Shown in pieces: positions 1 through 58,467 of a DNA stretch of 64,000 bases; the stretch's first letter is position 1; every line of letters starts with the position of its first letter. The notes under the pieces are model-generated. The model was given only the letters and a program-made list of their open reading frames with translations. It had not been told where the DNA came from and did no database searches. Origin of the DNA: Bacteroidia bacterium (GTDB lineage Bacteria; Bacteroidota; Bacteroidia; Palsa-965); contig JBIJCF010000002.1 of the NCBI GenBank assembly GCA_044344795.1, forward strand, positions 15,562 through 79,561. The letters are read 5' to 3'. Made by a program: the position numbers and the translations under genes.

Positions 1-951
1 TCCGTTAAGCACCTGCATGCGGAAGTTGCGGTAGCGCGGACTAAACCAAATGTCTTTTAACGTAAAGTTGTTTAACTGGCCCAAACGGTGGTGTGCGTCT
101 TTATCGAAACAGCAGGGCACCACGCCTCCGTCCCACGTAATGACGCAGCTGTGCCACATGCGCCAGCAATGGTCTTCCAATTGGTTTTTTAATACCCAAC
201 GCCCTTCTGCATTACGCGTATAACGGGCGTATTTGTCGTTATTGGGAATGAGCACATTGCCGTTTTCAAAATCGTACACTTGTGCGGTTTTTAAATGTAC
301 TTCGTCCACGCCCAATTCATGCGCCATAAGCTGTACATCCTTTACCTGGTGCTCGTTGTACGAGGTTACTAAAAACTGAAACACCACGTGGGGCGTTTTC
401 GATTTTAATTGTTTTTTCCAGTGCAGGATGTTGCGCGTGCCTTCCAGCACTTTGTCGAGTTTACCGCCGATGCGATAAGCCTGATAGGTTTCCTGTGTGG
501 TGCCGTCAATGGAAATGATGAGTCGGTCGAGCCCGGATTGCACGGTAGCACGTGCTTTGTCGCTATCCAGATAATGCGCGTTGGTAGATGTGGAAGTGAG
601 GATTTTTTTACGATGAGCGTAATGCACCATTTCCAGCAAATTCGGATTGAGATATGGTTCGCCCTGAAAATAAAAGTTGAGGTACATGAGGTGCGGCGCA
701 AATTGATCTAACAGCTCATGAAATTTCTCGCGTTGCAGCATGCCTGTGGGTCGCGAAAACGAACGTAATCCGCTAGGACATTCGGGACAGCGCAGGTTGC
801 AGGATGTGGTGGGTTCTATGCTTAACGCAAACGGTAGTCCCCATTGTTCGGGCTTCTTGGTGCGACGTGCATACCAAAATGACGCGTACACTTTACCGGC
901 ATTCCACAATCGTGAAGGAGAAAGCGTTCGTACAACAGACCATGCGCGCAT
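1..951 (-). CDS. Radical SAM protein with a Cys-rich (SPASM/twitch-like) C-terminal region. Its C-terminus runs off the window start, so it is absent from the ORF track.
   Basis: My own minus-strand translation from the ATG at 951-949 gives MRAWSVVRTLSPSRLWNAGKVYASFWYARRTKKPEQWGLPFALSIEPTTSCNLRCPECPSG. This contains the CxxxCxxC radical-SAM 4Fe-4S motif and was verified codon by codon. Further on are ...CWRMWHSCVITWDGGVVPCCFDKD. Track ORFs 405..701, 409..711 and 740..958 lie inside this gene in other frames. Confidence 0.6.
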   Translation of the reverse strand, partial: MRAWSVVRTLSPSRLWNAGKVYASFWYARRTKKPEQWGLPFALSIEPTTSCNLRCPECPSGLRSFSRPTGMLQREKFHELLDQFAPHLMYLNFYFQGEPYLNPNLLEMVHYAHRKKILTSTSTNAHYLDSDKARATVQSGLDRLIISIDGTTQETYQAYRIGGKLDKVLEGTRNILHWKKQLKSKTPHVVFQFLVTSYNEHQVKDVQLMAHELGVDEVHLKTAQVYDFENGNVLIPNNDKYARYTRNAEGRWVLKNQLEDHCWRMWHSCVITWDGGVVPCCFDKDAHHRLGQLNNFTLKDIWFSPRYRNFRMQVLNG

Positions 952-1067: not shown

Positions 1068-4000
1068 TTACTTCTGAACGTTCACACGCAAAGTGTGTTG
1101 TTCATTAGCGCTTGTTACACGGATGATGTACAAGCCGGAAGCCTGAGTCTCTAAAGAGATCTGCTTTGTGAATCCTGTCTGCACGTTGTTTTCGTTAGCA
1201 GCATACACTACTCGGCCTTGCATATCCACCATTTCGATAATAACGTCTCCTACGTTAGCATTGATTGCTAAAGTGAATACGCCGTTATTCGGGTTTGGAT
1301 AAACATTTACACCTTCAGCTAAAGTGTTTTCAGCAACACCTACGCATGCATCAACAGTTACCGTAACTGTTGCAGAACCGCTACAGCCGTTAGCATCAGT
1401 GAAGTTGTAGGTTAATGTCTGAGCACCTGCACCAACAGAAGGATCGAAGTTAGCTCCTGTTACACCCGGACCTGACCAAGCACCGCCTGCAGGAGCACCT
1501 GTCAATGTAACGTCAGCATCATCCACGCACACGGTAGATGCAGAAGCAGTACCTGTTACAGTTGGAAGAGTGTTGATGGTTACGTTAACGGTATCAGTAC
1601 CAACGCAACCGTTAGCGTCTGTAACAGCAACATAGTAAGTTCCTGAAGTAGAAGCAACCAAAGTTTGGCTGGTTGAATTATCACTCCATACGAAAGAAGA
1701 CCCCTGGTTTTGCGCATCCAACGTTACTGTTCCGCCGCACTGCGTCGAATCAGCACCTAAAGCAACAGTTGGGTTGCTGTTAATCGTAACGTTGATAGTA
1801 TCAGAATTCATACAGCCGTTAGTATTAGTAACCATTACAGAGTATGTGCCTGATGCAGCAACTGTCAATGTTTGAGCAGTTGTGCTGTCGTTCCACATAA
1901 ACATTGCACCAGAATTTTGAGCATCTAATATTACTGTACCCTCACACTGCGACACATCACTACCTAATGAAACTGTAGGTAATGCGTTTACGTTGACTGT
2001 TACAGTTGCTGTATTTACGCACCCGTTTACATCGGTTCCTGTTACAGTATAAGTGGTAGAAGTGTTCGGTGCAACAGTTTCTGTTGCTGCACTGCCACCC
2101 GAACTCCAAGCGTATGTAGTCGCACCTGAAGCCATCAGCGTATCAGATCCGCCATCGCAGATAGTCGCCATCATTGCTGATGCAGTAACAGCAGGTAAAG
2201 CATTTACGTTAACTGTTACTGTTGCGGTGTTTACGCAACCGTTTGCATCGGTTCCTGTTACGGTATATGTAGTAGTGGTGTTTGGCGTAACAGTTTCAGT
2301 TGCAGCAGTTCCGCCTGAACTCCATGCATAGGTAGAGGCTCCTCCAGCAGTTAAAGTCTCAGTGGCACCGTCGCAAATTACACCTGCCGCTGCGGTAGCG
2401 GTAACTGTAGGCAATGGATTTACGTTTACAGAGACAGTGGCGGTGTTTGCACATCCATTGGCATCTGTACCGGTTACTGTGTATGTAGTATTTGTGGTTG
2501 GAGACACAGTTTCAGTTGATCCGTTTCCGCCCGAACTCCATGCATAAGTTGAGGCTCCACCTGCAGTTAAGGTTTCAGTCGCTCCGCTACAGATCGTGCC
2601 AGCTGCCGCTGAGGCAGTAACAGTTGGTAATGAATTAACAGTAAGCGCAATAGTTGCAGTGTTTACACATCCGTTTGCGCTAGTACCTGTTACAGTGTAT
2701 GTAGTAGAAGATGTTGGAGTTACAGTAACGTTCGAACCCGACAAGTTGCCCGGATTCCAAACGTATGTACTTGCACCACCACCGGTTAATGTAGTTGAAC
2801 CGCCAATACATATTGCTGTGTTAGCAGCTGCCGCACTAACAGTTGGTAATGGATTAACCGTAACAGCAACAGTTGACGTACCTGTACATCCATTCGCTCC
2901 CGTACCTGTAACTGTATACGTGGTAGAAGTAGTCGGAGAAACAGTAACACTTGATCCGGATAAGTTACCCGGATTCCAAACATAGCTTGTTCCGCCGGTG
3001 GCGTTTAAGGTAGTTGAGCCGCCAACACAGAATGAAGCATTGGTAGCAGCAGCAGTAATGGTTGGTGCTGGGTTTACAACTACCGAAGTTGTAGCTGTTT
3101 TGGAGCATCCTGTTGCTGCATCTGTGCCGGTAACAGTATATGTGGTAGTAGTAGTCGGATTAACCGTAACGGAAGCTCCGTTCAAATTGCCCGGATTCCA
3201 ATTATAAGTTGACGAGCCACTTCCTGTTAAAGTAACAGGCTGTCCCGCACATACCGAAGTAGGAGTTGCACTTGCAGACGGCGTCGGAACAGAGGTTTGG
3301 CTTATGGTAAGCGTAAATGCGCTGGCCGATGAAAATCCGGTAACCAAAATACGATAGGTAACACCCGGTTGAGAGCACCACTGCACAGACGCAGATGAAG
3401 AAAACGAGCAAAGCGGACCGCCGTCATCATTACCTGTTACACAAGTCAATGCTCCGCATGTTCCTGTATAAACAAAGATTTTGGAGTCCCAACTAGTAGC
3501 ACAAAGATCTGCACCTAAACGATTCCCATTACCTACAACGGTATACCAAACCCCCGGCTGGGAATAAGTTGTAATACAAGTAGGTGGCGCAGGAGATTCA
3601 ACAGTGGCATTTACAGTTGTTCCTGAAGTGGTACTTGGAATAGACAACGCCTGAGCGTTGCTGCACAAGTCGTTGGCTGGTGCAGCAGGCGGCGGCGGCG
3701 GGGTGCAGGAATTAAGCGCCATAGTAATATTACGACAGTTTGTATTAGTTCCGCAGGAAGAATTGGCAGCGGTATGCACATAGTATGTTCCTGCAGCAGT
3801 CGAATACCAGTTAAGTGGCGTATTTCCCGCTGCCACAACCGGACCGGAAGGAGTACCTTGACGTATAGTGAGATAATCGGAGGGAACTGTCGATGTTGCG
3901 GTATAGCCAGTAAATGCAGCCGTACTAGACATGGTAGCATACTCGCCAGCAAAAGCGCAAGAAGCTAGTGTCACAGGCGTAGATGTTGTTGGAGCATTAC

Positions 4001-4412
4001 CACTGCCATAAGCGCTAAACATGTTACATGCTGAACTCGCCAACAAAGTAATATCTCTGCACGCGTTGGCCGTACCGCAAAGGCAGTTTGCGCTAACGTG
4101 AATGTAGTAGGTAGTTGTCGTAGGCGCCGTAAACGAAACAGCTCCAACGCCCATAGCTACTACGGTACCGCCCGGACTCCCCGAACGGATAGTCATGAAA
4201 TCTGTAGTTACGGTACTTGTTACCCGATATACAGTACCGGCGTTAAGACCATTCCAAGTTCCATACTCACCGGCATACTGACAGAAGATGGTACCTCCAA
4301 CACTGGCACTGCTGTAGGGGATAGTGTTGTTACACTGGGCATTACCTTCCGATAACCCCAATGACACCAGCAACCCGAAGACGGTTGCAAGTTTTGCATA
4401 AATGTGCTTCAT
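1068..4412 (-). CDS. Large secreted cell-surface protein built of tandem Ig-like/adhesin repeats, with a T9SS type-A C-terminal sorting domain
   Basis: N-terminal signal peptide MKHIYAKLATVFGLLVSLGLSEGNAQ. There are about eight tandem repeats of roughly 75 aa (NPLPTVTATAAAGVICDGATETLTAGGASTYAWSSGG...TYTVTGTDANGCVNTATVTVNVN). The C-terminus YPNPNNGVFTLAINAN...GLYIIRVTSANEQHTLRVNVQK is a typical Por-secretion CTD. Composition is T/S/G/N-rich. Confidence 0.8.
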   Translation of the reverse strand: MKHIYAKLATVFGLLVSLGLSEGNAQCNNTIPYSSASVGGTIFCQYAGEYGTWNGLNAGTVYRVTSTVTTDFMTIRSGSPGGTVVAMGVGAVSFTAPTTTTYYIHVSANCLCGTANACRDITLLASSACNMFSAYGSGNAPTTSTPVTLASCAFAGEYATMSSTAAFTGYTATSTVPSDYLTIRQGTPSGPVVAAGNTPLNWYSTAAGTYYVHTAANSSCGTNTNCRNITMALNSCTPPPPPAAPANDLCSNAQALSIPSTTSGTTVNATVESPAPPTCITTYSQPGVWYTVVGNGNRLGADLCATSWDSKIFVYTGTCGALTCVTGNDDGGPLCSFSSSASVQWCSQPGVTYRILVTGFSSASAFTLTISQTSVPTPSASATPTSVCAGQPVTLTGSGSSTYNWNPGNLNGASVTVNPTTTTTYTVTGTDAATGCSKTATTSVVVNPAPTITAAATNASFCVGGSTTLNATGGTSYVWNPGNLSGSSVTVSPTTSTTYTVTGTGANGCTGTSTVAVTVNPLPTVSAAAANTAICIGGSTTLTGGGASTYVWNPGNLSGSNVTVTPTSSTTYTVTGTSANGCVNTATIALTVNSLPTVTASAAAGTICSGATETLTAGGASTYAWSSGGNGSTETVSPTTNTTYTVTGTDANGCANTATVSVNVNPLPTVTATAAAGVICDGATETLTAGGASTYAWSSGGTAATETVTPNTTTTYTVTGTDANGCVNTATVTVNVNALPAVTASAMMATICDGGSDTLMASGATTYAWSSGGSAATETVAPNTSTTYTVTGTDVNGCVNTATVTVNVNALPTVSLGSDVSQCEGTVILDAQNSGAMFMWNDSTTAQTLTVAASGTYSVMVTNTNGCMNSDTINVTINSNPTVALGADSTQCGGTVTLDAQNQGSSFVWSDNSTSQTLVASTSGTYYVAVTDANGCVGTDTVNVTINTLPTVTGTASASTVCVDDADVTLTGAPAGGAWSGPGVTGANFDPSVGAGAQTLTYNFTDANGCSGSATVTVTVDACVGVAENTLAEGVNVYPNPNNGVFTLAINANVGDVIIEMVDMQGRVVYAANENNVQTGFTKQISLETQASGLYIIRVTSANEQHTLRVNVQK
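1350..3250. repeat. Intragenic tandem DNA repeats of about 225 bp encoding the 75-aa modules, with central copies near-identical
   Basis: Repeated protein modules. The plus-strand antisense ORFs 2053..3207 all carry the same VPVTVYVV motif, which reflects the DNA periodicity. Confidence 0.7.
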
Positions 4413-4617
4413 AAGATTAAGTTTGTATTAGTTTGCAGTTACTAAACTAAGAAAATACTTACGAGATCACAATTTTGATAAAAAAATAATAATTACTTGG
4501 CTTTAGGTATTAAGGAAACAGTGTGCAGATACACTAGTTGTGGGTTGTCAGGTTATCGCGAATTCTATTAATATACCTACTTTTACCTGGTCTTTTCAAT
4601 CCTAGTATCTCAAACTT

Positions 4618-7032
4618 ATGTGGGCGAAGCTTTCGCATTTTATTTTACGCTATAAAATTTCCATCCTGGTTGTTACGCTGGCGCTTACCTCATTTATGGG
4701 TTGGCAGGCGTACACGAAGTTAGAGTTGTCGTACACGTATGCGCGTGTGTTGCCTAAAGATGATCCGATGTATTTGGCATACGAAGAGTTCAAGGCGCGT
4801 TATGGTGAAGACGGCAACGTTATGGTGATTGCGTATCAGGATCTGGGAATATTTAAGTTGAAACAATATCAGGCTTGGTATGACTTGACGGAATCTATTC
4901 GCAAAATAGATGGCGTGCAAGACGTAATGTCCACAGCGCGATTATACAATATGGAGCGCAATGATGATTCGCTTCGTTTTGATATTCGACAGGTAGTGCA
5001 ACAGCGCCCTAATACACAGGAAGAAGTGGACAGCTTGAAGGAACAAATCGATCGCTTGCCGTTTTACGACGGAATGCTGATTAATAAAAAGTCGTCTGTT
5101 ACGCTGATGGCTATCACATTCAAGCAAAAAGATCTGAACAGTAAAAAGCGCCTCGATATTGTTAAAGCTGTTCGTGAGAACACGGAAAAATTTGAAAAGA
5201 CGACAGGCGTTACGGCACATTATAGTGGTATGCCTTGGATACGTTCTGAGTATATGCGCAAAATAGGAGGAGAAACAGCGTTCTTTTTGTTTTTATCATT
5301 GGGTGTAACTGCAGTAATTCTGTTCATCTTCTTCCGGTATTTCAATGCAGTATTTTTCTCGTTGGTTGTAGTTGTTGTCGGACTTATTTGGTCGTTGGGA
5401 ACGATAGGTTTGTTGGGTTATAAGATTACGGTATTAACCGGTTTAATTCCATCATTGATTGTCATTATCGGTATTCCGAATTGTATTTTCCTCATCAATA
5501 AATATCAGGAGGAACTTTCCCGACATGGCAACAAAACCAAAGCCTTATCGCGTATGGTGCAGAAGGTTGGTTTGTCGAATTTGTTGGCGAACGTTACCAC
5601 GGCTATCGGGTTTGGAGTGTTCTATTTTACTAATAGTTCTTTGTTGGTAGAATTTGGTGTTACTGCGGCCATTAATGTACTTACGACATATGTGATCGCT
5701 ATCGTCTTAACACCGATCATCTTCTACTATTTGCCGGCTCCTAAGGCGAAACAAATGAATCACCTGAGTGGCAAGCGTGTCAATAAAATTATCGATTACA
5801 TCGATCATCTCGTTCACAACAAGCGGAAACAAATTTATATTGGCATAGCAGTTGCTACGCTGATTTCTTTAATTGGATTTAAGTTTATCAGTGTTGTAGG
5901 ATATGTAGTTGATGATTTACCGAAAGATGAACCTGTTTATGTGGATTTGAAGTTTATGGAAAAACACTTCAATGGTATTTTGCCTTTTGAAGTAGCCATT
6001 GATACGAAAAAGAAAAACGGATTATTTGAGAATGACGGTGACGTGTTGTATCGAATCGATTCTTTGCAACGCATCATCATGTCAAAGCCGGGCTTCTCGA
6101 AACCGTTATCCATTGTTGAAGCGTTGAAGTTTTCATATCAAGCGTACAAAGACGGACGTCCTAAAGCATATCGTTTACCTTCGAACGGCGCTGATTTAAA
6201 AGCATTGGCCGATTACAGCAAGACTGTTAGTGGGCAGCAGCAGAAGCTGAACAACTTTATTGATTCTACACGTCAATATACACGCGTTAGTTTTCAGATG
6301 GCGGACGTTGGTTCGGACAGTGCGAAAAAAATTGTAGCACAAATTCAGCCGTTGGTTGATTCATTGTTTCCACCAAGTCAATATAAAGTTGATATGACCG
6401 GACACTCGCTCATGTTCTTACGTTCGTTCGATTACTTGTTACATCACTTGTTCGTGAGTTTGTTGATCGCAATTGTGTTGATCTTACTCATCGGAATGGT
6501 GTTGTTCCGTTCAGTGGCGATTATTGTTTTGTCTAAGCTGCCGTGCTTAATTCCACTCGTAATGACAGCAGGTATTATGGGTTTCATGGGTGTGCCGTTT
6601 AAATCAAGTACGATTTTGATTTTCTCCATCGCATTCGGTATTGCTTCCGATGGTACGATTTACATTTTAACGGAATATCGCAATCAATTACGCAAATTAT
6701 CAGCAGCACAAAAGCATAAGGCGGTTTCGTTTGCTATCCGTGAAACAGCATTGAGTATGATTTACACGAACGTAATCTTGTTCTTTGGTTTCGCCATCTT
6801 CGTGCTTTCCGGTTTTGGCGGCACAGTGGCATTAGGTGTTTTATTGTCAATTACATTAATTGTTTCATTAGCTACCAACTTGATTTTGTTGCCTTGTATT
6901 TTGTTGTCGCTGGAGCGTCGCAATGCGCACAAGGCGATGGTTAAGGAGCCGTTAATTGATATTTACGACGAAGAAGAAGATGTAGATCCGGACAAGCTGG
7001 TTATTCATTCCGATCAACACAATCAACACTAA
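4618..7032 (+). CDS. MMPL/RND-superfamily exporter (HpnN/MmpL-like, sterol-sensing-domain-type membrane transporter)
   Basis: 804 aa. Two bundles of about six TM helices, each preceded by a large periplasmic loop (for example VILFIFFRYFNAVFFSLVVVVVGLIWSLGTIGLLGYKITVLTGLIPSLIVIIGIPNCIFL), which is typical RND/MMPL topology. Confidence 0.6.
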   Translation: MWAKLSHFILRYKISILVVTLALTSFMGWQAYTKLELSYTYARVLPKDDPMYLAYEEFKARYGEDGNVMVIAYQDLGIFKLKQYQAWYDLTESIRKIDGVQDVMSTARLYNMERNDDSLRFDIRQVVQQRPNTQEEVDSLKEQIDRLPFYDGMLINKKSSVTLMAITFKQKDLNSKKRLDIVKAVRENTEKFEKTTGVTAHYSGMPWIRSEYMRKIGGETAFFLFLSLGVTAVILFIFFRYFNAVFFSLVVVVVGLIWSLGTIGLLGYKITVLTGLIPSLIVIIGIPNCIFLINKYQEELSRHGNKTKALSRMVQKVGLSNLLANVTTAIGFGVFYFTNSSLLVEFGVTAAINVLTTYVIAIVLTPIIFYYLPAPKAKQMNHLSGKRVNKIIDYIDHLVHNKRKQIYIGIAVATLISLIGFKFISVVGYVVDDLPKDEPVYVDLKFMEKHFNGILPFEVAIDTKKKNGLFENDGDVLYRIDSLQRIIMSKPGFSKPLSIVEALKFSYQAYKDGRPKAYRLPSNGADLKALADYSKTVSGQQQKLNNFIDSTRQYTRVSFQMADVGSDSAKKIVAQIQPLVDSLFPPSQYKVDMTGHSLMFLRSFDYLLHHLFVSLLIAIVLILLIGMVLFRSVAIIVLSKLPCLIPLVMTAGIMGFMGVPFKSSTILIFSIAFGIASDGTIYILTEYRNQLRKLSAAQKHKAVSFAIRETALSMIYTNVILFFGFAIFVLSGFGGTVALGVLLSITLIVSLATNLILLPCILLSLERRNAHKAMVKEPLIDIYDEEEDVDPDKLVIHSDQHNQH

Positions 7033-7035
7033 TCC

Positions 7036-7917
7036 ATGAAAGGTATTATTCTCGCCGGTGGATCCGGCACACGTTTGCATCCTTTGACGCTTGCAGTGAG
7101 TAAGCAATTGATGCCGGTTTTTGATAAACCCATGATTTATTATCCGTTAAGCACATTGATGCTTTCGGGTATTAAAGAAATTTTAATTATTTCTACTCCT
7201 GTTGATTTGCCATTATTTGAAAAATTACTAGGAACAGGAGAACAATTGGGCATACGTTTTCATTACGCTGTGCAACCGGAACCGAAAGGATTAGCTCAGG
7301 CATTTACGATCGGCTCAGACTTTGTCGGTGCTGATCATGCCGCTTTGATTTTGGGTGATAATATTTTCCACGGCTCTAATTTGTCCAAAACACTAGCCAC
7401 TGCTCGTGAACGCGTTGAGCAGAATGGCGGCGGTATGGTGTTCGCTTACCACGTCAACGATCCGGAACGATACGGTGTTGTTGAATTTGACACGAACGGC
7501 AAGGCGATCACAATAGAAGAGAAGCCGGTGAAACCGAAATCGAATTTTGCAGTGCCGGGAATTTATTATTACGACAACAGCGTAATTGAATTGGCACACA
7601 ATCTTAAACCAAGTCCTCGTGGCGAACTGGAAATCACAGATATCAATCGAATCTACCTTGAGCGCGGAAAGTTAGAGGTGAGTATTTTAAATCGAGGTAC
7701 AGCATGGTTAGATACCGGAACGCATGAATCGTTATTACAGGCGTCCAACTATGTTTCTATCATTGAAGAGCGTCAAGGACTTAAAGTGGGTTGCATCGAA
7801 GAGGTGGCGTACCGAATGGGATTCATTGATGCGAATCAACTGCGCAAGTTAGCCGAGCCTTTAATGAAAAGCGGTTATGGTAAATATCTTTTGTCTTTGT
7901 TATATTCACAGACATGA
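7036..7917 (+). CDS. rfbA: Glucose-1-phosphate thymidylyltransferase
   Basis: N-terminus [46 protein letters not shown] is the canonical RmlA motif. 293 aa. Starts 4 bp after the MMPL stop. Confidence 0.85.
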
Positions 7918-8858
7918 AACCAATCCGAAAGATTCTGATTACGGGTGGTGCCGGCTTTATTGGCAGCTCTCTTGCCGAAAGGCTCTCGGAGAAGGCCGAA
8001 TACAGAATCACATTGGTGGATAATTTACTGACCGGAACATTGTTGCACGTGCCGGAAGGGAAACATAATAATATCCAATTTATAAAATGCGATGTTAATT
8101 CGTTTAAGGATATTTCGGAAGTTTTTTATTCTACCCGGTTTGACTGGGTGTTTCATTATGCTGCGGTCGTTGGAGTACAGCGAACACTCGATAATCCTGT
8201 GATGGTGTTGGATGATTTAACCGGTATCGCAAATATTTTAAACCTGAGCAAAAATTCCGGAGTGGAGCGAGTGTTCTACTCGAGTTCCTCCGAAGTATAC
8301 GGTGAACCTGTTGAATTGCCGCAAAACGAAGACACTACACCACTCAATTCCCGCTTGCCATATGGAATTGTGAAGAATGTAGGCGAAGCATTTCTGAAGT
8401 CGTATCGTAAAGAATTCGGTTTACCATTTACTATTTTTAGATTCTTCAATACATACGGTCCAAAGCAAAGCAGAGATTTTGTCGTTTCCAAATTCATGAG
8501 TTGTGCATTAAAGAATGAGCCGATTATAATTTACGGAGACGGTTCTCAAAGTCGTACCTTCTGTTACGTAGATGATAACGTTGATGCCTGTATTCGTATT
8601 GCGGAGGATAGCATGTACATTGACGATATTGTAAATATCGGAAGTGATAGAGAAATTTCTATTTTACAATTAGCTCAACTGGTTAAATCGGTGTGCAATT
8701 CGAAATCAGAAATTGTCCACGCGCCTGCATTACCGGAAGGAGATATGACCCGACGTATGCCTGATGTATCCAAAATGCGTCAAGCCTTGCAAAATGAGCC
8801 GATTTCGCTTGAAGATGGGCTGAAGAAAATTTTATCCGACACTAGTTTTATCTTATAA
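7914..8858 (+). CDS. NAD-dependent NDP-sugar epimerase/dehydratase (SDR family, UDP-glucuronate decarboxylase-like)
   Basis: Rossmann motif [22 protein letters not shown] and a catalytic YxxxK (YGIVK). 314 aa. Overlaps the rfbA stop by 4 bp (ATGA). Confidence 0.7.
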
Positions 8859-8865
8859 GTCGCTT

Positions 8866-9840
8866 GTGAATAGTTTGCAATTGCAATTAATTGAAGAAGG
8901 AATTAAAACGTTTACGAACGATTTACCTGAAACTCCTGCACATTTATACGATCCTATTCGCTACACCATGAATCTCGGTGGAAAGCGGATGCGACCGGTA
9001 TTAGTTCTTTCCGGAGCTTCCTTATTCACTGATGATCTTCAACCGGCTTTACCGGCTGCAGTTGGCATTGAGTTGTTTCACAACTTTACATTGTTGCACG
9101 ACGATATCATGGATCTTGCACCATTGCGCCGCGGACAGCCAACTGTATATCAAAAGTGGAATTCCAATATTGCAATTCTCAGCGGTGATGCCATGTTTGC
9201 GGAGTCGTTGCGCTTGATGGCGAAATCACCACACAACGCATTGCCTCGTATTTTGGAGTCGTTTACAAAAGCAGCGCGGGAGGTTTGTGAAGGACAACAA
9301 ATGGATATGGACTTTGAGCAACAAGCTCGTGTTACGATTCCGGAATACATCCGAATGATTGAATTAAAGACTGCGGTATTGTTAGCAGCTTCATTGGAAA
9401 TAGGCGCATACTGTGGTGGAGCTTATTCAACAGATGCACATAAGTTGTACGAATTTGGTCGAAACATAGGAATCGCATTTCAGCTGCAAGATGACATCTT
9501 GGATGTGTATGGTGATCCGGAAAAATTCGGAAAGCAGGTGGGAGGAGATATTGTGTCAAACAAGAAAACTTATTTATTGATCTCTACATTGCAACAAGCC
9601 GATGGATATCTGAAGGAAGAATTGTTGAACTGGTTGCAGGCAGGGGCGGATCAATCTGTTGAGAAAGTGAATAGTGTAAAGGATATTTATAACCGATTAC
9701 ACATTCGTGAGCAGGCAGAAGCAGAAATGAAAAAGTATTACGATGTTGCGATTCAGTCGCTGCTTAGTGTAGGTGCAGATGAACAGAAGTTAGCCGGAAT
9801 TCGTGCATTTGCCGATGCTCTGATGGTTAGAGAACAGTAA
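8866..9840 (+). CDS. Polyprenyl (geranylgeranyl / longer-chain) diphosphate synthase
   Basis: First Asp-rich motif LLHDDIMD and second Asp-rich motif FQLQDDILD. 324 aa. Confidence 0.8.
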   Translation: MNSLQLQLIEEGIKTFTNDLPETPAHLYDPIRYTMNLGGKRMRPVLVLSGASLFTDDLQPALPAAVGIELFHNFTLLHDDIMDLAPLRRGQPTVYQKWNSNIAILSGDAMFAESLRLMAKSPHNALPRILESFTKAAREVCEGQQMDMDFEQQARVTIPEYIRMIELKTAVLLAASLEIGAYCGGAYSTDAHKLYEFGRNIGIAFQLQDDILDVYGDPEKFGKQVGGDIVSNKKTYLLISTLQQADGYLKEELLNWLQAGADQSVEKVNSVKDIYNRLHIREQAEAEMKKYYDVAIQSLLSVGADEQKLAGIRAFADALMVREQ

Positions 9841-9856
9841 TTGGTTATATTTAACT

Positions 9857-10978
9857 ATGCGTGCAAGTGTAGTTGTCTTCTTTCTGTTTTTAAGTAGTGT
9901 GTTGTTCTCACAGCAACATGATTCGGTACCTGATTCTACTCAGCGTAAAGGTTTTATTTATCGCATGTTTTTTGATACTACAGCACACAGTGGTTTATTT
10001 GCTATTCCCTTATTGTATTATACTCCTGATACTCGTTGGGCGTATGGCGCAATGGGCGTCTATTATTTTCATGTAGGCGGACCGAGCGCGCGTTTGTCGT
10101 ATGCGAAGCTTTTGATCGATTACACGCAAAACAAGCAACTTGACGTGTGGTCGTCTTGGAATATTTTTTTGAAGGAGGAAAGTTGGCTCATTAAAGGAGA
10201 AGCACGCTATAGAAATTTTCCTGATCGTTTTTATGGAATAGGAAATCAAACCACATCCGAAATGGTGGAACGGTATACGTACGATCTGCTCAGCATGAAA
10301 ATTTTGGGATTGAAGCGTATTCGCAAAGGAATGTTTGCCGGTGCAGATTATCAGGTGCTGTATATGTATAAGATGAAAGTAGCTGAAGGGGGAATTCTGG
10401 ATACAGCAGGAATTACGGGTGTTGGAGGAGGATTGAATTCCGGTTTTGGTTTGGTGTTTGTCTCAGATCAACGCGATAATGTTGTTAATGCAAGAACCGG
10501 TTATTTCTTCGAAGTATCTTCCTACTATTATCGTCCGGTATTCGGAAGTGATTTTAATTATACCACCTTGAACATGACTTTCAATAAATATATTCCTGTT
10601 TATAAAAGTAATGTCGTTGCGTTCAACTCGGTGGTGAATCTGAATTTTGGTAATCCAACGTTCATAACGATGTCGCAAGCAGGTGGTGATGATATCCTGC
10701 GTGGTTACGCGAAGAATAGATTTCGTGATCACAATTTTGTTGGTGCTCAAACAGAATATCGTTTCAAAATTTGGAAACGTTTTGGTGGAACCGTATTCGC
10801 AGGTGCAGGTGATGTGTTTAGAGATCGGAAGGATGTTTCCTGGAATACGGTGAAATATTCGTACGGCGCCGGATTGCGTTATATGGTGAATCGCAAGGAA
10901 CGACTCAACATACGTTTAGATTACGGCATTGGCAGAGGTAATAGCAGTTTTTATATTATGATTACGGAGGCATTTTAG
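9857..10978 (+). CDS. Outer-membrane beta-barrel protein (Omp85/surface-antigen-like C-terminal barrel without POTRA domains)
   Basis: Signal peptide MRASVVVFFLFLSSVLFSQQ, alternating aromatic amphipathic strands and a C-terminal ...GRGNSSFYIMITEAF ending in Phe. It lies 16 bp after the polyprenyl synthase gene. Confidence 0.4.
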   Translation: MRASVVVFFLFLSSVLFSQQHDSVPDSTQRKGFIYRMFFDTTAHSGLFAIPLLYYTPDTRWAYGAMGVYYFHVGGPSARLSYAKLLIDYTQNKQLDVWSSWNIFLKEESWLIKGEARYRNFPDRFYGIGNQTTSEMVERYTYDLLSMKILGLKRIRKGMFAGADYQVLYMYKMKVAEGGILDTAGITGVGGGLNSGFGLVFVSDQRDNVVNARTGYFFEVSSYYYRPVFGSDFNYTTLNMTFNKYIPVYKSNVVAFNSVVNLNFGNPTFITMSQAGGDDILRGYAKNRFRDHNFVGAQTEYRFKIWKRFGGTVFAGAGDVFRDRKDVSWNTVKYSYGAGLRYMVNRKERLNIRLDYGIGRGNSSFYIMITEAF

Positions 10979-11012
10979 CGCACGCGCAGCCGATTGTCGG
11001 CTAATGTTTACC

Positions 11013-12950
11013 TCAGTTAGTCATAAATTCCCATGCGCTGCGGTAGCCGTTTATCTCCTCGGCGTAATCCAGAAACGACTTGTAGAACGAATGCGCACCC
11101 AGTGTCGCACTGTCGCCGATAACAATTAGTTTTCGTTTTGCACGAGTTAGGGCTACGTTCATTCTTCGAGTATCCGATAAAAATCCAATTTCATTCCTAT
11201 CGTTACTTCGTGTCATGGAAATGCACATAATGTCACGCTCTTGTCCCTGGAATCCGTCTACAGTGCGGATGCTGAAATGATGTCGCGACTCGGAAACCCA
11301 ACTTTGCTCGTGAAGTAATGTTTGTAATTTTTCGGTTTGTTGTTTGTACGGTGCTATGATACCAATGCGCAATGGTTCGTCGGGACGATGATCATATTGT
11401 TGCAGCACATTTCCTAAGTGCCTAATCAGTAAGCGCGCTTCTTCTTCATTTTCGTAACTCAGTGTTTCGGGATGTTGATGCTCTTCATAGCCGGTTCCTG
11501 CGGTGTCAATAAATTCGAGCGGACGAATCAACAAATCATCAGCTTCGTCAAAGCTCAACAGATTATCTTTCACATCAACATAAGCCGAAAGTTCGTTGTT
11601 GTAAAACATGCGATTGCTGAAACCCATTATCTTTTCGTGCATGCGGTATTGCACGTTAAGCATCACTGCAACATTGGGGTGCGAGCGAATAACGCGTTCA
11701 AACAACGTGTATTTTAATCCGCCGTCTTCTGCACGTTTCGACTTAACAGTTGGAGGAAGTTGCAAATGATCTCCTGCAAAAACTACACGCTCACTTCTGA
11801 TAATCGGGATCCACGTCATGGGTTCCAATGCTTGTGCAGCTTCATCAATAAAACAGGTTTTAAAGCGTAAGTCGCGCATGAGTCGGCCTGCAGCAACTAC
11901 CGGCGTACACGCAATAACTTGTGCTTTTTCGAAACTATCCCACAAGATATAATCTTCTAACGCAGTCGCATCTTTCTGCAATTGCCGTGCTTCCTGATAC
12001 AACAAGTGTCGCTGTTCACGTTCGGCATGACCAAAGTTGCGTTTGTACTTTTTCGCCATGCTAAAGAATTCTTCAGCACGTTTTCGAAACTGTTTTAATT
12101 CTTTAAAGGATTCGTGATTGGCCATGCGCGCATCCAGCGTGTTTTGCAACACTTCTTCTGAAACACGCGCCGGATTTCCCAAACGTAAAACGTTGATGCC
12201 TTGTTGGACTAGTTTTTCAGTAAGTAAATCGACGGCCACATTACTCGGACTGCAAACGAGTACTTGTTTTTCATGCATTAGTGTATGCATGATGGCGCGA
12301 ATTAAGGTTGTAGTTTTTCCGGTTCCCGGAGGCCCATGAATAACTGCAACATCTTGTGCAGCCGTAATAAGATTAACTGCATTTTGTTGTGAACGATTTA
12401 ATCCGGACATGCCGGGAACTTCGGCTACACGACCAAACGAAGGAGCAGAGACGCCATAAAGGACATCGCGCAGCTGAGCCAATCTGCTGTTTTCTGCTAC
12501 TGCGACTTTGCCTAAAGCAAATTTCATTTCCCGATATCCGGCTTCATCAAATAATAAATTGATACCGATTTTACCACGTTCTATCCAACCCGGAAGTTCA
12601 TCAGTATTAAACGCAATGCGCATTTTGTTGCCATGCACATGTTTAATGGTGCCTTGAATTTTCCACTGCTCACTATTATAGTCTCCGCTATTGGAAAAAA
12701 TCTCGATTACTTTCCCGTTGGAAAATTGATGCAGTTCATTTTGTCCTTGTGTGCGTTCAAACTCGGCGGTAACATAATCGCCAACACCAAATTCTTCAGA
12801 AGTTACATGAACCGGATACCAGGTTACGCCATTTTTTCTGCGTGCTGCAATGCTGTATCGTTCGAATTGCTCGAGGTATTGTCGTAAATCTTCTTCCCGC
12901 TCAATCTCCAATAATGACTGCAACTGCAGCAGTTGATCTTTTACCTTCAT
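11013..12950 (-). CDS. Superfamily-1 helicase of the Upf1/DNA2/IGHMBP2-like family (AAA_11/AAA_12)
   Basis: Walker A GPPGTGKTTT, N-terminal beta-barrel domain, 645 aa. Resembles the putative-DNA-helicase family widespread in Bacteroidota. Confidence 0.7.
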   Translation of the reverse strand: MKVKDQLLQLQSLLEIEREEDLRQYLEQFERYSIAARRKNGVTWYPVHVTSEEFGVGDYVTAEFERTQGQNELHQFSNGKVIEIFSNSGDYNSEQWKIQGTIKHVHGNKMRIAFNTDELPGWIERGKIGINLLFDEAGYREMKFALGKVAVAENSRLAQLRDVLYGVSAPSFGRVAEVPGMSGLNRSQQNAVNLITAAQDVAVIHGPPGTGKTTTLIRAIMHTLMHEKQVLVCSPSNVAVDLLTEKLVQQGINVLRLGNPARVSEEVLQNTLDARMANHESFKELKQFRKRAEEFFSMAKKYKRNFGHAEREQRHLLYQEARQLQKDATALEDYILWDSFEKAQVIACTPVVAAGRLMRDLRFKTCFIDEAAQALEPMTWIPIIRSERVVFAGDHLQLPPTVKSKRAEDGGLKYTLFERVIRSHPNVAVMLNVQYRMHEKIMGFSNRMFYNNELSAYVDVKDNLLSFDEADDLLIRPLEFIDTAGTGYEEHQHPETLSYENEEEARLLIRHLGNVLQQYDHRPDEPLRIGIIAPYKQQTEKLQTLLHEQSWVSESRHHFSIRTVDGFQGQERDIMCISMTRSNDRNEIGFLSDTRRMNVALTRAKRKLIVIGDSATLGAHSFYKSFLDYAEEINGYRSAWEFMTN

Positions 12951-13936
12951 TTTTTGCCTTTAACTGCAATGCGGTGAATGTCGATATAAACAGGCAAGTG
13001 ATCACTGTATCCGCCAATGTAACGAGAGCCGGCCCACGTACGTTTCGGTGATGGTCCGTCGCCTTTGTACACTTCTGCAAACAAGCGATCCTGCTTAAAA
13101 ATGTATGCAGTTCCACATTTTAATGTTGTTCCTCCGTTAAGCGTTTGGCTCACCAGGATTTGATCCAATACTGATTTTTCCTTTTTGTAATAATGTGTTC
13201 CATCGCCCGAATTTTTAATGGAATCCATTTTATTCTGAAGCGACACCACTGTTTTGAGCGAAGCATCCGTTGGCTCATCGTTGAAATCACCTAATGCAAT
13301 AATTCGAGATCCGGCATTAATGGCTTTAAGACTATCACAAAGGCGTTGTAGTGTTTTTGCCGCGAGTAATCTTTTCGGTCCGCTTTCTTGTTCTCCGCCG
13401 CGACGTGATGGCCAATGATTAACCATTACAAAAAGCGTATCTGTTTTTCCAAGAATACCTCTTACCAAAAGTATATCGCGTGTCGGATACGCGGTGTCTG
13501 CCCATCCTGCAACCGGCACTGTATAAGATGTGAGCACGCGAAAATCTTTTTTCTTATAAATCAACGCCACATCAATGCCACGTTTATCGCGGGAGTTGTG
13601 ATGCACAATTCCATACTTCTGTTTTTTCAATTTTGTTTTGGTGGTTAAATCTTCCAACACTTTTCTGTTTTCAACTTCAGCCATTCCTAATATTGAAGGT
13701 CCTTTTCCGGCATTCATGTCCAAAATAACATCAGCAAGGTTGTTCAGTTTGGTCACATACCGCGCGGAAGTCCACGCATTTTTCGCACCCGGCAAAAATT
13801 CTTCGTCATTAATCGCAGGATCATTAATAGTGTCGTACAGATTCTCCACATTCCAAAAAGCTATGCGGTAGTGTTGCGCCTGAAGCGGCGAAAGTTGCAA
13901 TAAGACAAGTGCTAATAGGAAAAGAGGGAAACGCAT
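12947..13936 (-). CDS. Secreted endonuclease/exonuclease/phosphatase (EEP)-family protein
   Basis: Signal peptide MRFPLFLLALVLLQLSPLQAQ and EEP signatures (AFWNVENL, LGDFNDEP, SDHLPV). Its stop overlaps the helicase start by 4 bp. Confidence 0.6.
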   Translation of the reverse strand: MRFPLFLLALVLLQLSPLQAQHYRIAFWNVENLYDTINDPAINDEEFLPGAKNAWTSARYVTKLNNLADVILDMNAGKGPSILGMAEVENRKVLEDLTTKTKLKKQKYGIVHHNSRDKRGIDVALIYKKKDFRVLTSYTVPVAGWADTAYPTRDILLVRGILGKTDTLFVMVNHWPSRRGGEQESGPKRLLAAKTLQRLCDSLKAINAGSRIIALGDFNDEPTDASLKTVVSLQNKMDSIKNSGDGTHYYKKEKSVLDQILVSQTLNGGTTLKCGTAYIFKQDRLFAEVYKGDGPSPKRTWAGSRYIGGYSDHLPVYIDIHRIAVKGKK

Positions 13937-22107: not shown

Positions 22108-22671
22108 TTAAACTGTCATGATTTCTTTTTCTTTAGCTTCCAGGTGTTTATCTACCTTTGCGCTGTAAGTATCTGTTAACGTTTGTACTTTCGCTTCAGC
22201 TTCTTTCCCTTCATCCTCAGGAAGTCCGGCCTTGATCAATTTTTTGATTTCTTCGTTTGCATCACGGCGCGCATTACGCACACTCACCTTGGCGTGTTCG
22301 CCCTCTTCTTTCGATTTCTTGACCAATTGTTTACGACGTTCTTCCGTCATCGGAGGAATAGAACAAATGATTACCGTTCCGTTATTGCTTGGTGTGAAGC
22401 CCAAATTCGCCGCAAGAATTGCGCGCATCAACGGATCGAGCATTGATTTTTCCCATGGTTGAATGGAAATGGTGCGAGCATCAGGAGTGTTAACATTGGC
22501 AACCTGACTGAGTGGAGTCATGGAGCCGTAATAATCAACCAAAACACCTTCAACCATTGAAGCACTCGCACGACCGCCACGAATTTTGGTCAATTCCACT
22601 TCCAAGTGGTTTACAGCATCGGACATCGACTCTTCCGTGGTATCTAAAATCAATTGAACTTCTTCATTCAT
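22108..22671 (-). CDS. frr: Ribosome recycling factor
   Basis: 187 aa. Conserved RRF sequence (EVELTKIRGGRASASMVEG..., VRNARRDANE). Confidence 0.9.
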   Translation of the reverse strand: MNEEVQLILDTTEESMSDAVNHLEVELTKIRGGRASASMVEGVLVDYYGSMTPLSQVANVNTPDARTISIQPWEKSMLDPLMRAILAANLGFTPSNNGTVIICSIPPMTEERRKQLVKKSKEEGEHAKVSVRNARRDANEEIKKLIKAGLPEDEGKEAEAKVQTLTDTYSAKVDKHLEAKEKEIMTV

Positions 22672-22714
22672 AATAAAACGTTTTACGGTTTTAAAGTTAA
22701 CAAATAGCAGCAGG

Positions 22715-23425
22715 TTATTTCAATTCCACAATTGTTCCAACAGCCTCTCCGTTTACTACGCGTAACAAATTGCCCTTTGCATTCATATCAAATACGATGA
22801 TGGGCAAATTGTTTTCTTTACACAGTGTAAAAGCAGTTAAATCCATTACGTTCAGATTTTTCTCATACGCTTCATCGAACGTAATTCGCTCGTACTTCGT
22901 TGCTGTTTTATCTTTCTCCGGATCGGCCGTGTATATGCCATCTACGCGAGTTCCTTTAAGTACAACATTAGCTTCAATTTCAACCGCGCGTAATGTTGCA
23001 GCAGTATCAGTGGTGAAATACGGATTACCTGTGCCGGCACCAAATATTACAACACGGCTTTTTTCAAGGTGGCGTACGGCACGTCTGCGAATAAACGGTT
23101 CGCTGATTTGGCGCATTTCAATTGCAGACTGCAGTCGTGTAGGAACTCCTGCTTTCTCTAAAGCAGATTGCAACGCAAGGCTGTTAATCATTGTTGCCAA
23201 CATGCCCATATAGTCTCCTTGCACACGATCGATGCCGCCTTTTTCCGCTTGTATACCACGGAAAATATTTCCACCACCAATAACAATTGCAACCTGTGCG
23301 CCGGCATCAACAATCGTTTTTATTTCCGCTGCGTATTGTGTAAGCAGATCGTTGTCAATGCCATACTGTTTCGATCCCATAAGCGCTTCACCGCTTAACT
23401 TCAATAGAACTCTTTTGTACTTCAT
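22715..23425 (-). CDS. pyrH: UMP kinase
   Basis: [17 protein letters not shown]... and the amino-acid-kinase fold. 236 aa. Confidence 0.9.
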
Positions 23426-23442
23426 GCCGTTGGTATTTGGTC

Positions 23443-23469
23443 AAAAAAAATCCCTCCGAATGGGAGGGA
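23443..23469 (-). terminator. Terminator or attenuator hairpin between tsf and pyrH
   Basis: tccctcc-gaatg-ggaggga, with TTTTTTTT on the minus strand. Confidence 0.5.
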
Positions 23470-23488
23470 TAAATTATGTAATAATTAA

Positions 23489-24310
23489 TTATCCGAGAGC
23501 GATACGCTTGAAGCCGGTGATTTTAGCTTCTTTGTCTGCATCTGCAAGATATTGAGCGACTGTTTTCTTTCCGTCTTTAATGAACTCTTGGTTAACCAAA
23601 GTAGATTCTTTGTAGAATTTGTTGATTTTGCCCTGAGCGATCTTCTCTACCATATCTTCAGGCTTACCTTCAGCACGAATTAGTTCGCGGGCGATTTCCA
23701 ACTCACGGTTCAATATTTCCTGATCAACATCGTCTTTATCAACCGCTACAGGAGCCATTGCAGCAACCTGCATAGCAATATCCTTAGCAACGTTTTCAGG
23801 AACTACTTTTGAAAAACCAACGATGCAAGCCAATTTGTTGCCGGGGTGGTTATATGCGATAACCATTCCTGCCTCGTGTTGCTCGTAACCGGACAATTCG
23901 ATCTTCTCACCGATCTTGCCAACCATTTCGATAACCTTTTCACCGATTGAGACACCTTCGTATGGCAATGCTACCAAAGCAGCTAAATCAGACGGTTTGT
24001 TGTTCAACGCAATCTCAGCAAATGCATTAGCTGTCTTATCAAAATCTTCGTTTTTAGCAACGAAATCAGTTTCGCAGTTCAGAACAGTTACAATTCCACG
24101 TGTTCCGTTTGATTTAGCAATAACTAGACCTTCTTTAGCATCACGTTCGCTACGGTTAGCGGCAACTTTTTGACCTTTCTTACGCAGAATGTCAACAGCT
24201 GCTTCGAAATCACCATTAGCTTCGGTCAACGCTTTTTTGCAATCCATCATACCGGCACCTGTCATGGTGCGCAGTTTATTTACATCTGAAGCAGTGATAG
24301 TAACTGACAT
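23489..24310 (-). CDS. tsf: Elongation factor Ts
   Basis: N-terminal UBA-like segment LRTMTGAGMMDCKKALTEANGDFEAAVDILRKKG. 273 aa. Confidence 0.9.
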   Translation of the reverse strand: MSVTITASDVNKLRTMTGAGMMDCKKALTEANGDFEAAVDILRKKGQKVAANRSERDAKEGLVIAKSNGTRGIVTVLNCETDFVAKNEDFDKTANAFAEIALNNKPSDLAALVALPYEGVSIGEKVIEMVGKIGEKIELSGYEQHEAGMVIAYNHPGNKLACIVGFSKVVPENVAKDIAMQVAAMAPVAVDKDDVDQEILNRELEIARELIRAEGKPEDMVEKIAQGKINKFYKESTLVNQEFIKDGKKTVAQYLADADKEAKITGFKRIALG

Positions 24311-24344
24311 GATAATGTTGTGTTCGAATTAATACTAAAATCTA

Positions 24345-25211
24345 TTAAGCGCGACTTGGTCTGCGAGCTCCGCCTTTAGAAGCAGGGCCTTTGGAAGCAG
24401 GACCTTTAGAGGCCGGACGCTTTTTGCGCTCACCGCCATCTTCAGCGTCAACGTCAAACTTGCTCTTGCGAACTCCGTCTTCGTTGAATTCTTCGCCGTC
24501 CTCTTCACCTTTATCTTTATCATTCTTGCGCTCTTCCAAACCTTCAGCAATCGCTTGATTCACGATATCTATGATCAACTTCACAGAAGTAGAAGCGTCG
24601 TCGTTAGCAGGAATTGCATAATCAACTTCGTTTGGATTCGAGTTGGTATCAACAATAGCAAACGTTGGGATACCCAGGCGATGCGCTTCCGCAACAGCGA
24701 TATGTTCTTTAACGATATCAACGATAAACAATGCAGCCGGCAAACGATTAAGATCGGCAATAGATCCTAATTGATGCTCCAACTTTGCACGCTCACGAGA
24801 CAACATTAACTTTTCTTTCTTGGAAAGGTTGTCGAAAGTGCCGTCAACAGCCATTTTGTCGATTGACGCCATTTTGCGAACTGCCTTACGGATAGTTGCA
24901 AAGTTGGTCAACATTCCACCGGGCCAACGTTCAGTAACGTAAGGCATATTCACCTTCTTAACTGATTCAGCAACGATATCTTTTGCCTGCTTTTTAGTAG
25001 CAACGAACAAAATTTTCTTGCCTGAGCGAGCGATAGCCTTCAATGCGTTGCACGCATCGTCCAACTTCACAACAGTTTTGTTCAGGTCAATGATGTGGAT
25101 ACCGTTCTTCTCAGTGAAGATATACGGAGCCATTGCAGGATTCCACTTGCGTTTCAGGTGGCCAAAATGTGCACCTGCTTCTAGTAATTCGTTGAACGAT
25201 GTTCTTGACAT
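24345..25211 (-). CDS. rpsB: 30S ribosomal protein S2 with a charged C-terminal extension
   Basis: [13 protein letters not shown], and the tail ...[25 protein letters not shown]. Confidence 0.9.
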
Positions 25212-51794: not shown

Positions 51795-52045
51795 AAATGG
51801 GTGCTGTTAGGTGTAAGACACAATTATACGACATTATGACGAAACAGTTGCAAAAAGTTGCTTTTTTTCAACAGTCACGCAATAATTTATGTTTGCCATC
51901 GTTCTATTCCGGCACACTAAATTTAGTTAGTCGGAAAGAACATTTATACAAATATCTTAGTTTTCAATGAACTATGCAAACCTTTTCAGGTTTGATATAC
52001 TTACATAGGTTGTAAATGTTAACTTTAACGACAAGAGCGGTTATC

Positions 52046-55948: not shown

Positions 55949-55998
55949 TAGATTTCAGCATTTTAATACATTTGTTTCCTTTCAAAATCGCTCAGACA

Positions 55999-57234: not shown

Positions 57235-57300
57235 TTTGAAATAAAACATAACATGAAATGCTGGTCGAAAATTGACCGGCATTTTTTATACCTGAAAATT

Positions 57301-57786
57301 ATGATACCCAATATTCGCGTAGGATTCGGTTTTGATGTCCACCAATTGAAGGAAGGACGTCCGATGATTCTTGGTGGTGTGCACATTGAGCATGATAAGG
57401 GATGCGATGGACATTCGGATGCGGATGTTTTATTACATGCGATTTGTGATGCGCTATTAGGTGCAGCAGGAATGCGCGACATTGGTTTTCATTTTCCCAA
57501 TACATCAGCGGAATTTAAAAATGCGGACAGTAAGAATTTATTGAAACATGTGGTGCAATTGATTCGCGAGAAGGGATGGCAAGTAATCAATGTGGACGCT
57601 ACTTTAACATTGGAAGCACCGAAAATAAATCCGCATATTGGAGCGATGATTAAAATAATTGCTCCAATCCTTGAAGTTGATGAAGATCGGGTGGCGATAA
57701 AAGCCACCACAAACGAGAAGATGGGTTATGTGGGAAGCGGCCAAGGTGCGAATGCTTACGCCGTTGCGTTGATCGGAAAACCTTAA
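57301..57786 (+). CDS. ispF: 2-C-methyl-D-erythritol 2,4-cyclodiphosphate synthase
   Basis: IRVGFGFDVHQL...HSDADVLLHAI. 161 aa from the internal start. Confidence 0.9.
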   Translation: MIPNIRVGFGFDVHQLKEGRPMILGGVHIEHDKGCDGHSDADVLLHAICDALLGAAGMRDIGFHFPNTSAEFKNADSKNLLKHVVQLIREKGWQVINVDATLTLEAPKINPHIGAMIKIIAPILEVDEDRVAIKATTNEKMGYVGSGQGANAYAVALIGKP

Positions 57787-58463: not shown

Positions 58464-58467
58464 ACAA

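Follow-up and report, generated by a model that had tools for sequence, protein, structure and literature searches.

A conserved block of MMPL transporter, sugar-nucleotide and prenyl diphosphate synthase genes in Bacteroidota, with a possible role in the transport of an isoprenoid-derived envelope lipid

The HAE3 family of resistance-nodulation-division (RND) transporters has only two characterised members, HpnN, which carries hopanoids, and AmeD, which pumps monoterpenes (PMC6394551). In the actinobacterial arrangement crtE-mmpL(cg0722)-crtBIYeYfEb, with epi and crtX nearby, the gene for geranylgeranyl diphosphate (GGPP) synthase adjoins mmpL, and the pathway yields decaprenoxanthin glucosides, which are glycosylated isoprenoids; the role of mmpL there is putative (PMC5401885, PMC7432914, PMC9861118). 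Bacteroidetes make C20 geranylgeranylglyceryl ether lipids through an archaeal-type geranylgeranylglyceryl phosphate synthase (GGGPS), and the function of these lipids is unknown (PMC7888582). The present study deals with a cluster of five plus-strand genes at positions 4618-10978 of a 64-kb window (the whole stretch of 64,000 nucleotides analysed, from contig JBIJCF010000002.1 of the Bacteroidia bacterium assembly GCA_044344795.1), four of which form a conserved block headed by a gene for an RND transporter of the MMPL type. An initial annotation had read the five genes as making and exporting one glycosylated polyprenyl or isoprenoid lipid, moved across the inner membrane by the MMPL protein and across the outer membrane by a beta-barrel, and had considered that no pathway of this composition was described. 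The latter view agrees with the literature on Bacteroidota, where searches on MMPL/HAE3 proteins in Bacteroidetes with polyprenyl, and on rfbA with polyprenyl synthetase, returned no relevant paper, but some actinobacterial carotenoid loci hold a partly similar set of crtE, mmpL, an NDP-sugar epimerase gene and the glycosyltransferase gene crtX (PMC5401885).

The cluster and the region preceding it consist of the following features:

4413..4617, plus strand: divergent intergenic region upstream of the MMPL gene, 205 nt, candidate promoter region
4618..7032, plus strand: MMPL/HAE3-like RND inner-membrane lipid transporter, 804 aa, opening the conserved block
7036..7917, plus strand: rfbA/rmlA, glucose-1-phosphate thymidylyltransferase, 293 aa
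7914..8858, plus strand: extended short-chain dehydrogenase/reductase (SDR) acting on NDP-sugars, UDP-glucuronate-decarboxylase/4,6-dehydratase-like, 314 aa
8866..9840, plus strand: predicted short-chain trans-prenyl diphosphate synthase (PPS), archaeal type-I GGPP/farnesyl diphosphate (FPP) synthase-like, 324 aa, GTG start
9857..10978, plus strand: Omp85-superfamily outer-membrane barrel lacking POTRA domains, 373 aa, outside the conserved block

Conservation of this arrangement was assessed in 80 MMPL-anchored loci from one-genome-per-species Bacteroidota assemblies (Flavobacteriales, Marinilabiliales/Bacteroidales, Cytophagales, Sphingobacteriales and unclassified Bacteroidia), 70 of which were informative, with enough downstream sequence and after identity and position filters. 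When all open reading frames (ORFs) of the 80 loci were clustered, the only widely recurring neighbours were PPS (40 loci), RfbA (32) and the SDR (28), every other family being present in at most 10 of the 80. PPS was encoded downstream of the MMPL gene in 41 of the 70 informative loci, within the full series MMPL-RfbA-SDR-PPS in 22, as MMPL-RfbA-PPS in eight, as MMPL-PPS in ten and as MMPL-SDR-PPS in one, while a further two loci carried sugar gene(s) without PPS. Cultured candidates for the MMPL-PPS form are found in Marinifilum fragile JCM 15579 (L074) and Geofilum sp. (L068). The MMPL-RfbA-PPS and MMPL-PPS variants show that the pairing of MMPL with PPS does not depend on the sugar genes. 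Gene order was constant across loci, with gaps often between -4 and +10 nt (L039, L045, L051, L062, L065, L070). In a neighbour-joining tree of the MMPL proteins, loci with the intact four-gene state were placed to either side of the midpoint root, a Marinilabiliales clade was marked by the MMPL-PPS state, and the linkage was lost in Cytophagales, in Flavobacteriaceae and in one clade of uncultured lineages. When loci were instead sampled starting from the SDR, three of three contigs carried the same four genes, between unrelated flanks. Since the intact order occurs on both sides of the tree, is constant, and is found again when sampling starts from the SDR, the block is an old and selectively maintained unit. 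MMPL>rfbA>SDR>PPS is a real, ancient four-gene operon, presumably co-transcribed, that has been kept across several Bacteroidota orders, and it connects an orphan transporter family with isoprenoid supply. The synteny envisaged for all five genes extends to distant relatives for these four, in the same order, and not for the barrel.

The slot after PPS that is held by the barrel gene in the window is occupied elsewhere by a small gene (cluster c5, approximately 125 aa, with no Pfam or NCBIfam match), which in seven loci, mainly of Flavobacteriales type, comes directly after PPS at a distance of -1 to +19 nt (313 nt in L044). Nine loci in total carry it, including L062 (15184-15561), and in L040 and L067 it lies one gene further on. 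On the other side of the block, the MMPL gene of L003, L036, L047, L058 and L072 has tsf-pyrH-frr, or part of it, no more than a few genes upstream, and rpsB-tsf-pyrH-frr is at 22108-25211 on the minus strand of the window; its proximity to the MMPL gene in relatives points to an ancestral neighbourhood of larger extent, which in the window has undergone rearrangement.

The five ORFs are long and give strong family matches, and are therefore regarded as real genes rather than chance ORFs. They are located where the initial annotation had placed them, and its family assignments hold in Pfam and NCBIfam profile matches. Tight packing was confirmed too, the junctions measuring 3 nt, a 4-nt ATGA overlap between the rfbA stop and the SDR start, 7 nt and 16 nt; the earlier figures of 4, -4, 8 and 16 describe the same junctions under slightly different counting. 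The overlap of the SDR start with the rfbA stop suggests translational coupling. The interval 4413-4617 is the sole long non-coding gap in the cluster and contains, at 4418, a single Bacteroidota-type -7-like motif (TAAGTTTG), of which the plus strand of the whole window holds 24 and the surroundings of the internal junctions of the cluster none; judged from these sequence features, this interval is likely the operon promoter region. Sigma-70 and terminator scans gave match counts near shuffle expectation, the sigma-70 models not covering Bacteroidota promoters, and no Rfam RNA family, riboswitch or leader RNA matched at E <= 1 in 4300-11100. The cluster ends 34 nt before a convergent helicase gene. 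The gap between the barrel and helicase genes includes an inverted repeat, AGCCGA-TTG-TCGGCT, at 10988-11002, which may act as a bidirectional terminator.

The transporter matched Pfam MMPL (PF03176) in two stretches with 130 bits (cut-off 20.5; E = 1.2e-37), in addition to sterol-sensing and Patched models. Its best NCBIfam model was HAE3 (TIGR00921) with 233 bits, below the subfamily cut-off of 351.9, so that the protein falls outside HAE3 as curated. Membership of HpnN was rejected (TIGR03480, 123.6 against 751.85; NF052374, 52.4 against 1100), as was that of BstA and actII, whose scores were far under the curated cut-offs. The AlphaFold model, with a predicted local distance difference test (pLDDT) score of 73, contains twelve transmembrane (TM) helices and two periplasmic domains, one after TM1 and one after TM7. 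Foldseek aligned it over its full length with MmpL5, MmpL4 and MmpL3 (TM-scores 0.68-0.73) and with HpnN (0.66) at approximately 15% identity, and the fold also matched NPC1. Of the two helices in which RNDs have membrane-embedded carboxylates for proton relay, TM10 carries, in the alignment of homologues, an invariant S677-D678-G-T680-x-Y682 and TM4 an invariant N288 within GIPNCIF, at the place where Asp is usual. More than 6000 homologues were found, the best 120 of which are 56-99% identical and all come from Bacteroidota sources. The protein may accordingly be described as MMPL/HpnN-like, as the initial annotation had it, in the sense of an RND of the MMPL/COG1033 branch with an MmpL/HpnN-like fold, and no unrelated known substrate was found for it.

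The sugar-1-phosphate nucleotidylyltransferase assignment of RfbA is borne out, the protein being a true RmlA by its score of 468.4 bits to TIGR01207, above the equivalog cut-off of 360.65; in 33 of the 80 loci its gene comes straight after the MMPL gene, with 64-72% identity. The SDR likewise proved to be an NDP-sugar epimerase/dehydratase-type protein (Pfam Epimerase PF01370, 182 bits, E = 1.6e-53); among solved structures it comes closest to 8vr2 and human UXS (4m55/2b69), with approximately 164-169 bits. It has the GxxGxxG NAD site and the S/T-x-E and YxxxK (YGIVK) motifs, which makes it UXS-like or dehydratase-like, with dTDP-glucose or UDP-GlcA as its predicted substrate. SSSEVYG and YxxxK are conserved among the orthologues, which are 63-72% identical. 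RmlB, GalE and RmlD were rejected as identities for the SDR, with scores of 146 against 365, 134 against 262 and 43 against 224 at the curated cut-offs. None of the ORFs of at least 150 aa in the window encodes rmlB, rmlC or rmlD, and the window thus holds no complete rmlABCD set.

The last gene of the block encodes a protein of the polyprenyl synthetase family (PF00348, 252 bits, E = 6e-75) in which both Asp-rich motifs are present, the first as LFHNFTLLH-DDIMD with Phe at position -5 and the second as DDILD. This Phe is shared by 38 of the 40 PPS orthologues. The best match among solved structures was 6kd7 (253 bits), a bacterial GGPP synthase (PMC10762340). Models of the long-chain IspB type scored much lower, and the protein remained below all NCBIfam equivalog cut-offs (GGPP_syn, 239 against 500; IdsA, 240 against 468). 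The two Asp-rich motifs and the bulky aromatic at -5 are those of short-chain enzymes, and PPS is predicted to be a C15/C20 (GGPP/FPP-type) synthase. The earlier designation as a polyprenyl diphosphate synthase with both motifs is therefore correct as to family, while a dedicated maker of long polyprenyl chains is not what the sequence points to.

The fifth gene does encode an outer-membrane beta-barrel with an N-terminal signal peptide, matching Pfam Omp85 (PF01103) with 56 bits (cut-off 24; E = 6e-15). Its model (pLDDT 80) has 16 strands, no POTRA domain and the TamA and BamA barrels as best structural matches. It belongs to a family of 736 matches of approximately 370 aa annotated as 'BamA/TamA family', and resembles the POTRA-less ('noNterm') Omp85 barrels related to TamA/BamA. 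BamA or TamA proper was rejected as an identity, since no POTRA is present and the first strand follows the signal peptide after only about 25 residues. The part assigned to it as the outer-membrane step of the pathway does not stand: tblastn found it in none of 86 related loci, four of four homologues on long contigs lie in unrelated neighbourhoods without an MMPL or PPS gene, and in L001 and L003 the convergent helicase gene comes next after PPS with no barrel between. Omp85 barrels are, moreover, known as protein insertases or translocases rather than lipid channels. A barrel relative (96% identity) and an SDR homologue (91% identity) are each on a contig of 20,660 bp, and this equal size suggests that the PPS-barrel adjacency exists only at short evolutionary range. 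By these comparisons, the barrel is a lineage-specific neighbour of the four-gene block. No TamB/AsmA partner was present in the window.

A second association of the MMPL gene with isoprenoid synthesis was found in a Cytophagaceae clade without the PPS link, where ispD (Pfam E = 1.5e-47) immediately precedes the MMPL gene, the junction measuring -4 or +3 nt:

L073, 8099-8746: ispD upstream of the MMPL gene
L080, 9345-9995: ispD upstream of the MMPL gene
L053, 8348-9007: ispD upstream of the MMPL gene, with meaB inserted between the two

This adjacency is independent of the one with PPS. Together with the co-conservation of PPS, the lipid-moving RND fold, the cargo of HpnN and AmeD and the crtE-mmpL precedent, it favours an isoprenoid cargo. 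The explanation that we favour, tentatively and at somewhat below an even chance, is that MMPL-rfbA-SDR-PPS is a conserved operon in which the product of the final gene makes the C15/C20 diphosphate precursor of an envelope lipid of isoprenoid origin, and that this lipid is the cargo of the RND protein. The MMPL protein would be a proton-driven HAE3/MmpL-like RND transporter that most likely takes the lipid, a hydrophobic molecule, out of the inner membrane and passes it to the periplasmic side, and PPS would provide the C15/C20 prenyl diphosphate as the building block of that lipid. RmlA and the SDR, which are probably translationally coupled, would make dTDP-glucose and a 4-oxidised derivative, a 6-deoxy or decarboxylated sugar. 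The sugar may either decorate the same lipid, through a glycosyltransferase encoded elsewhere, or feed a separate, co-regulated envelope glycan.

Several observations weigh against this explanation. No partner lies beside the MMPL gene in 27 of the 70 informative loci, and we infer the co-transcription of the four genes from sequence. The Asn in TM4 replaces the Asp of many RNDs, so the coupling mechanism of the transporter may depart from the canonical one. No function, substrate or experimental data were found in the literature for the Bacteroidota MMPL clade. The block is without a glycosyltransferase, a carotenoid gene or any other lipid-tailoring gene; glycosyltransferase or phosphoglycosyl transferase genes were likewise absent from the ORFs of at least 150 aa in the window and from the recurrent neighbours, GT9 and GT2 genes occurring sporadically in some loci, some kilobases away. 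The proposal that the activated sugar is joined to the prenyl chain therefore finds no coupling enzyme in the block or recurring beside it. PPS, finally, is probably a general FPP/GGPP supplier of the cell, and its linkage could reflect the co-regulation of envelope housekeeping genes.

This last consideration leads to the main rival, a housekeeping envelope operon without a common product, in which PPS would serve undecaprenyl phosphate and menaquinone, RmlA and the SDR would provide sugars for lipopolysaccharide or protein glycans, and the MMPL protein would move an unrelated lipid, the genes being co-transcribed or merely adjacent. We regard it as a real possibility, albeit one that probably does not apply. 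The window is ordinary core chromosome, with ribosomal protein genes, tsf-pyrH-frr, mur ligases, type IX secretion system (T9SS) genes and ispF, and tsf-pyrH-frr, sucAB, atpD, asnS-rpoN and lpxC/lpxA recur around the block; RmlA satisfies the equivalog model of the ordinary rhamnose-pathway enzyme, PPS resembles a general short-chain enzyme, the sugar genes have been lost in many lineages, in addition to the loci in which the MMPL gene stands alone, and no coupling enzyme is present. However, the adjacency of just these genes persists where other synteny has decayed, and in one clade the PPS link is replaced by another isoprenoid gene, ispD. Conserved order and overlapping stop and start codons across orders usually mark functional coupling, which also counts against mere housekeeping.

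A more specific form of the isoprenoid explanation would make the transporter the exporter of an orphan GGPP-derived lipid class, either the C20 geranylgeranylglyceryl ethers or a dTDP-sugar-decorated derivative, with the operon as the core of an unrecognised isoprenoid (glyco)lipid envelope pathway. We consider it unlikely. A search for GGGPS/PcrB near the block gave no match with an approximate Bacillus subtilis PcrB query, which is a weak test.

Slightly less probable again is a carotenoid-handling module like the actinobacterial crtE-mmpL, in which PPS would act as CrtE and the MMPL protein would relocate possibly glycosylated carotenoids within the envelope. Many Bacteroidota are carotenoid-pigmented. 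The crtE-mmpL precedents (PMC5401885, PMC9861118) and the GGPP synthase 6kd7 as closest solved structure of PPS (PMC10762340) speak for such a module, but crtB, crtI, crtY and crtZ were all absent from the recurrent neighbours and from the ORFs of at least 150 aa in the window, and the link has been lost in Flavobacteriaceae and Cytophagales loci and kept in the mostly anaerobic Marinilabiliales clade. The glyco-isoprenoid pathway of five genes proposed in the initial annotation is very improbable, for although the tight packing on one strand, the juxtaposition of sugar-activating and prenyl-forming enzymes, the actinobacterial loci for glycosylated carotenoids (PMC5401885) and the genes for barrel-like (DUF5686) or AsmA-family proteins that precede the MMPL gene in a few lineages agree with it, and the four-gene co-conservation and the MmpL/HpnN-like fold survive from it, the barrel does not belong to the block and has homologues standing alone elsewhere, no glycosyltransferase was found in the block, the window or the recurrent neighbours, and variants without the full sugar gene set exist.

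The genes for DUF5686 outer-membrane-like proteins just mentioned were located upstream of the MMPL gene in four loci:

L058, 8619-9899: DUF5686 outer-membrane-like protein
L072, 8544-9809: DUF5686 outer-membrane-like protein
L083, 2076-4499: DUF5686 outer-membrane-like protein
L057, 3684-6029: DUF5686 outer-membrane-like protein

These proteins come from different lineages and are mutually homologous (E = 4e-43), some of them with a CarboxypepD_reg domain; BLASTP detected no relation between them and the barrel of the window. In a single case (L005, 7119-9944), the MMPL gene is preceded by a same-strand gene of the lipid-bridge-like AsmA family, at a distance of 56 nt. With four loci and one locus, respectively, both types of neighbour are too few to build on.

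Other features of the window near the block or of related interest are the following:

7-942, minus strand: radical SAM/SPASM protein gene, running off the window start, 57% identical to cluster c7
1068-4412, minus strand: secreted protein of 1114 aa with Ig-like CHU_C-associated domains and a T9SS C-terminal sorting domain
11013-13936, minus strand: IGHMBP2-family SF1 helicase gene overlapping a gene of the endonuclease/exonuclease/phosphatase family
57783-62573, minus strand: gene cluster encoding DUF2490, DUF4956 and VTC-domain proteins, the product of a 193-aa ORF without annotation, and a CotH kinase ending in a T9SS sorting tail

Genes of the radical SAM/SPASM cluster c7 stand beside the MMPL-PPS block in eight related loci, divergently upstream or convergently downstream, and the protein gave only generic radical SAM and SPASM matches (36.7 against 225 for HpnH). 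The gene for the 1114-aa T9SS cargo sits between the radical SAM and MMPL genes, a position that is not conserved in relatives. In the close relatives L001-L003 the helicase gene is again downstream of the block, accompanied in L001 and L003 by the nuclease gene. The DUF2490/DUF4956/VTC/CotH cluster adjoins ispF (57253-57786) and porU/porV (52016-57234).

Bacteroidota are dominant in the gut, soil and ocean, and the conserved block bears on how unusual envelope lipids reach the outer membrane. Its gene-order link to prenyl diphosphate synthesis, with the replacement by ispD, offers, on comparative evidence, a concrete substrate hypothesis for a large transporter family. If the substrate is indeed an isoprenoid, HAE3-type RNDs would constitute a general export family for isoprenoid lipids, comprising carriers of hopanoids, of monoterpenes and of the lipid considered here.

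Among the known systems, HpnN (Rhodopseudomonas palustris, Burkholderia) shares with the present transporter a COG1033/HAE3-like RND architecture and its fold; it is encoded beside the genes that make its own isoprenoid substrate and functions without any fused adaptor in the periplasm or channel in the outer membrane (PMC6394551). An SDR labelled 'sugar epimerase' (HpnA model) is a further component of hopanoid clusters. The differences from HpnN lie in the low identity to its structures (14%), in the lack of squalene-hopene cyclase and hpn genes, none of shc, hpnCDE and hpnH being present among the window ORFs of at least 150 aa, and in the partners, which are here RmlA, a UXS-like SDR and a predicted C15/C20 synthase. 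AmeABCD of Castellaniella defragrans likewise combines an HAE3-family RND with a gene for an outer-membrane protein, and AmeD acts on monoterpenes (PMC6394551), whereas its partners are the conserved DUF1329 and COG4447 periplasmic proteins and a DUF1302 outer-membrane protein, none of which is present here, and the barrel of the window is not conserved.

Mycobacterial MmpL3/4/5, which export lipids and siderophores, are the best structural matches of the transporter, and MmpL genes are encoded with the biosynthetic genes of their cargo. At approximately 15% identity, however, the present protein has no MmpS partner, no C-terminal cytoplasmic domain and no coiled-coil insert, and the TM4 Asp-Tyr pair of MmpL is replaced by Asn. 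The actinobacterial crt operon belongs to another phylum, uses another RND branch (HAE2-type MmpL) and has another gene order; its crtB, crtI and crtX genes and its regulation by CrtR have no counterpart here. An RND lipid exporter encoded beside isoprenoid genes is thus known already from HpnN and crtE-mmpL, and what is new is a Bacteroidota clade that lies outside the HpnN models and is accompanied by a distinct set of partners.

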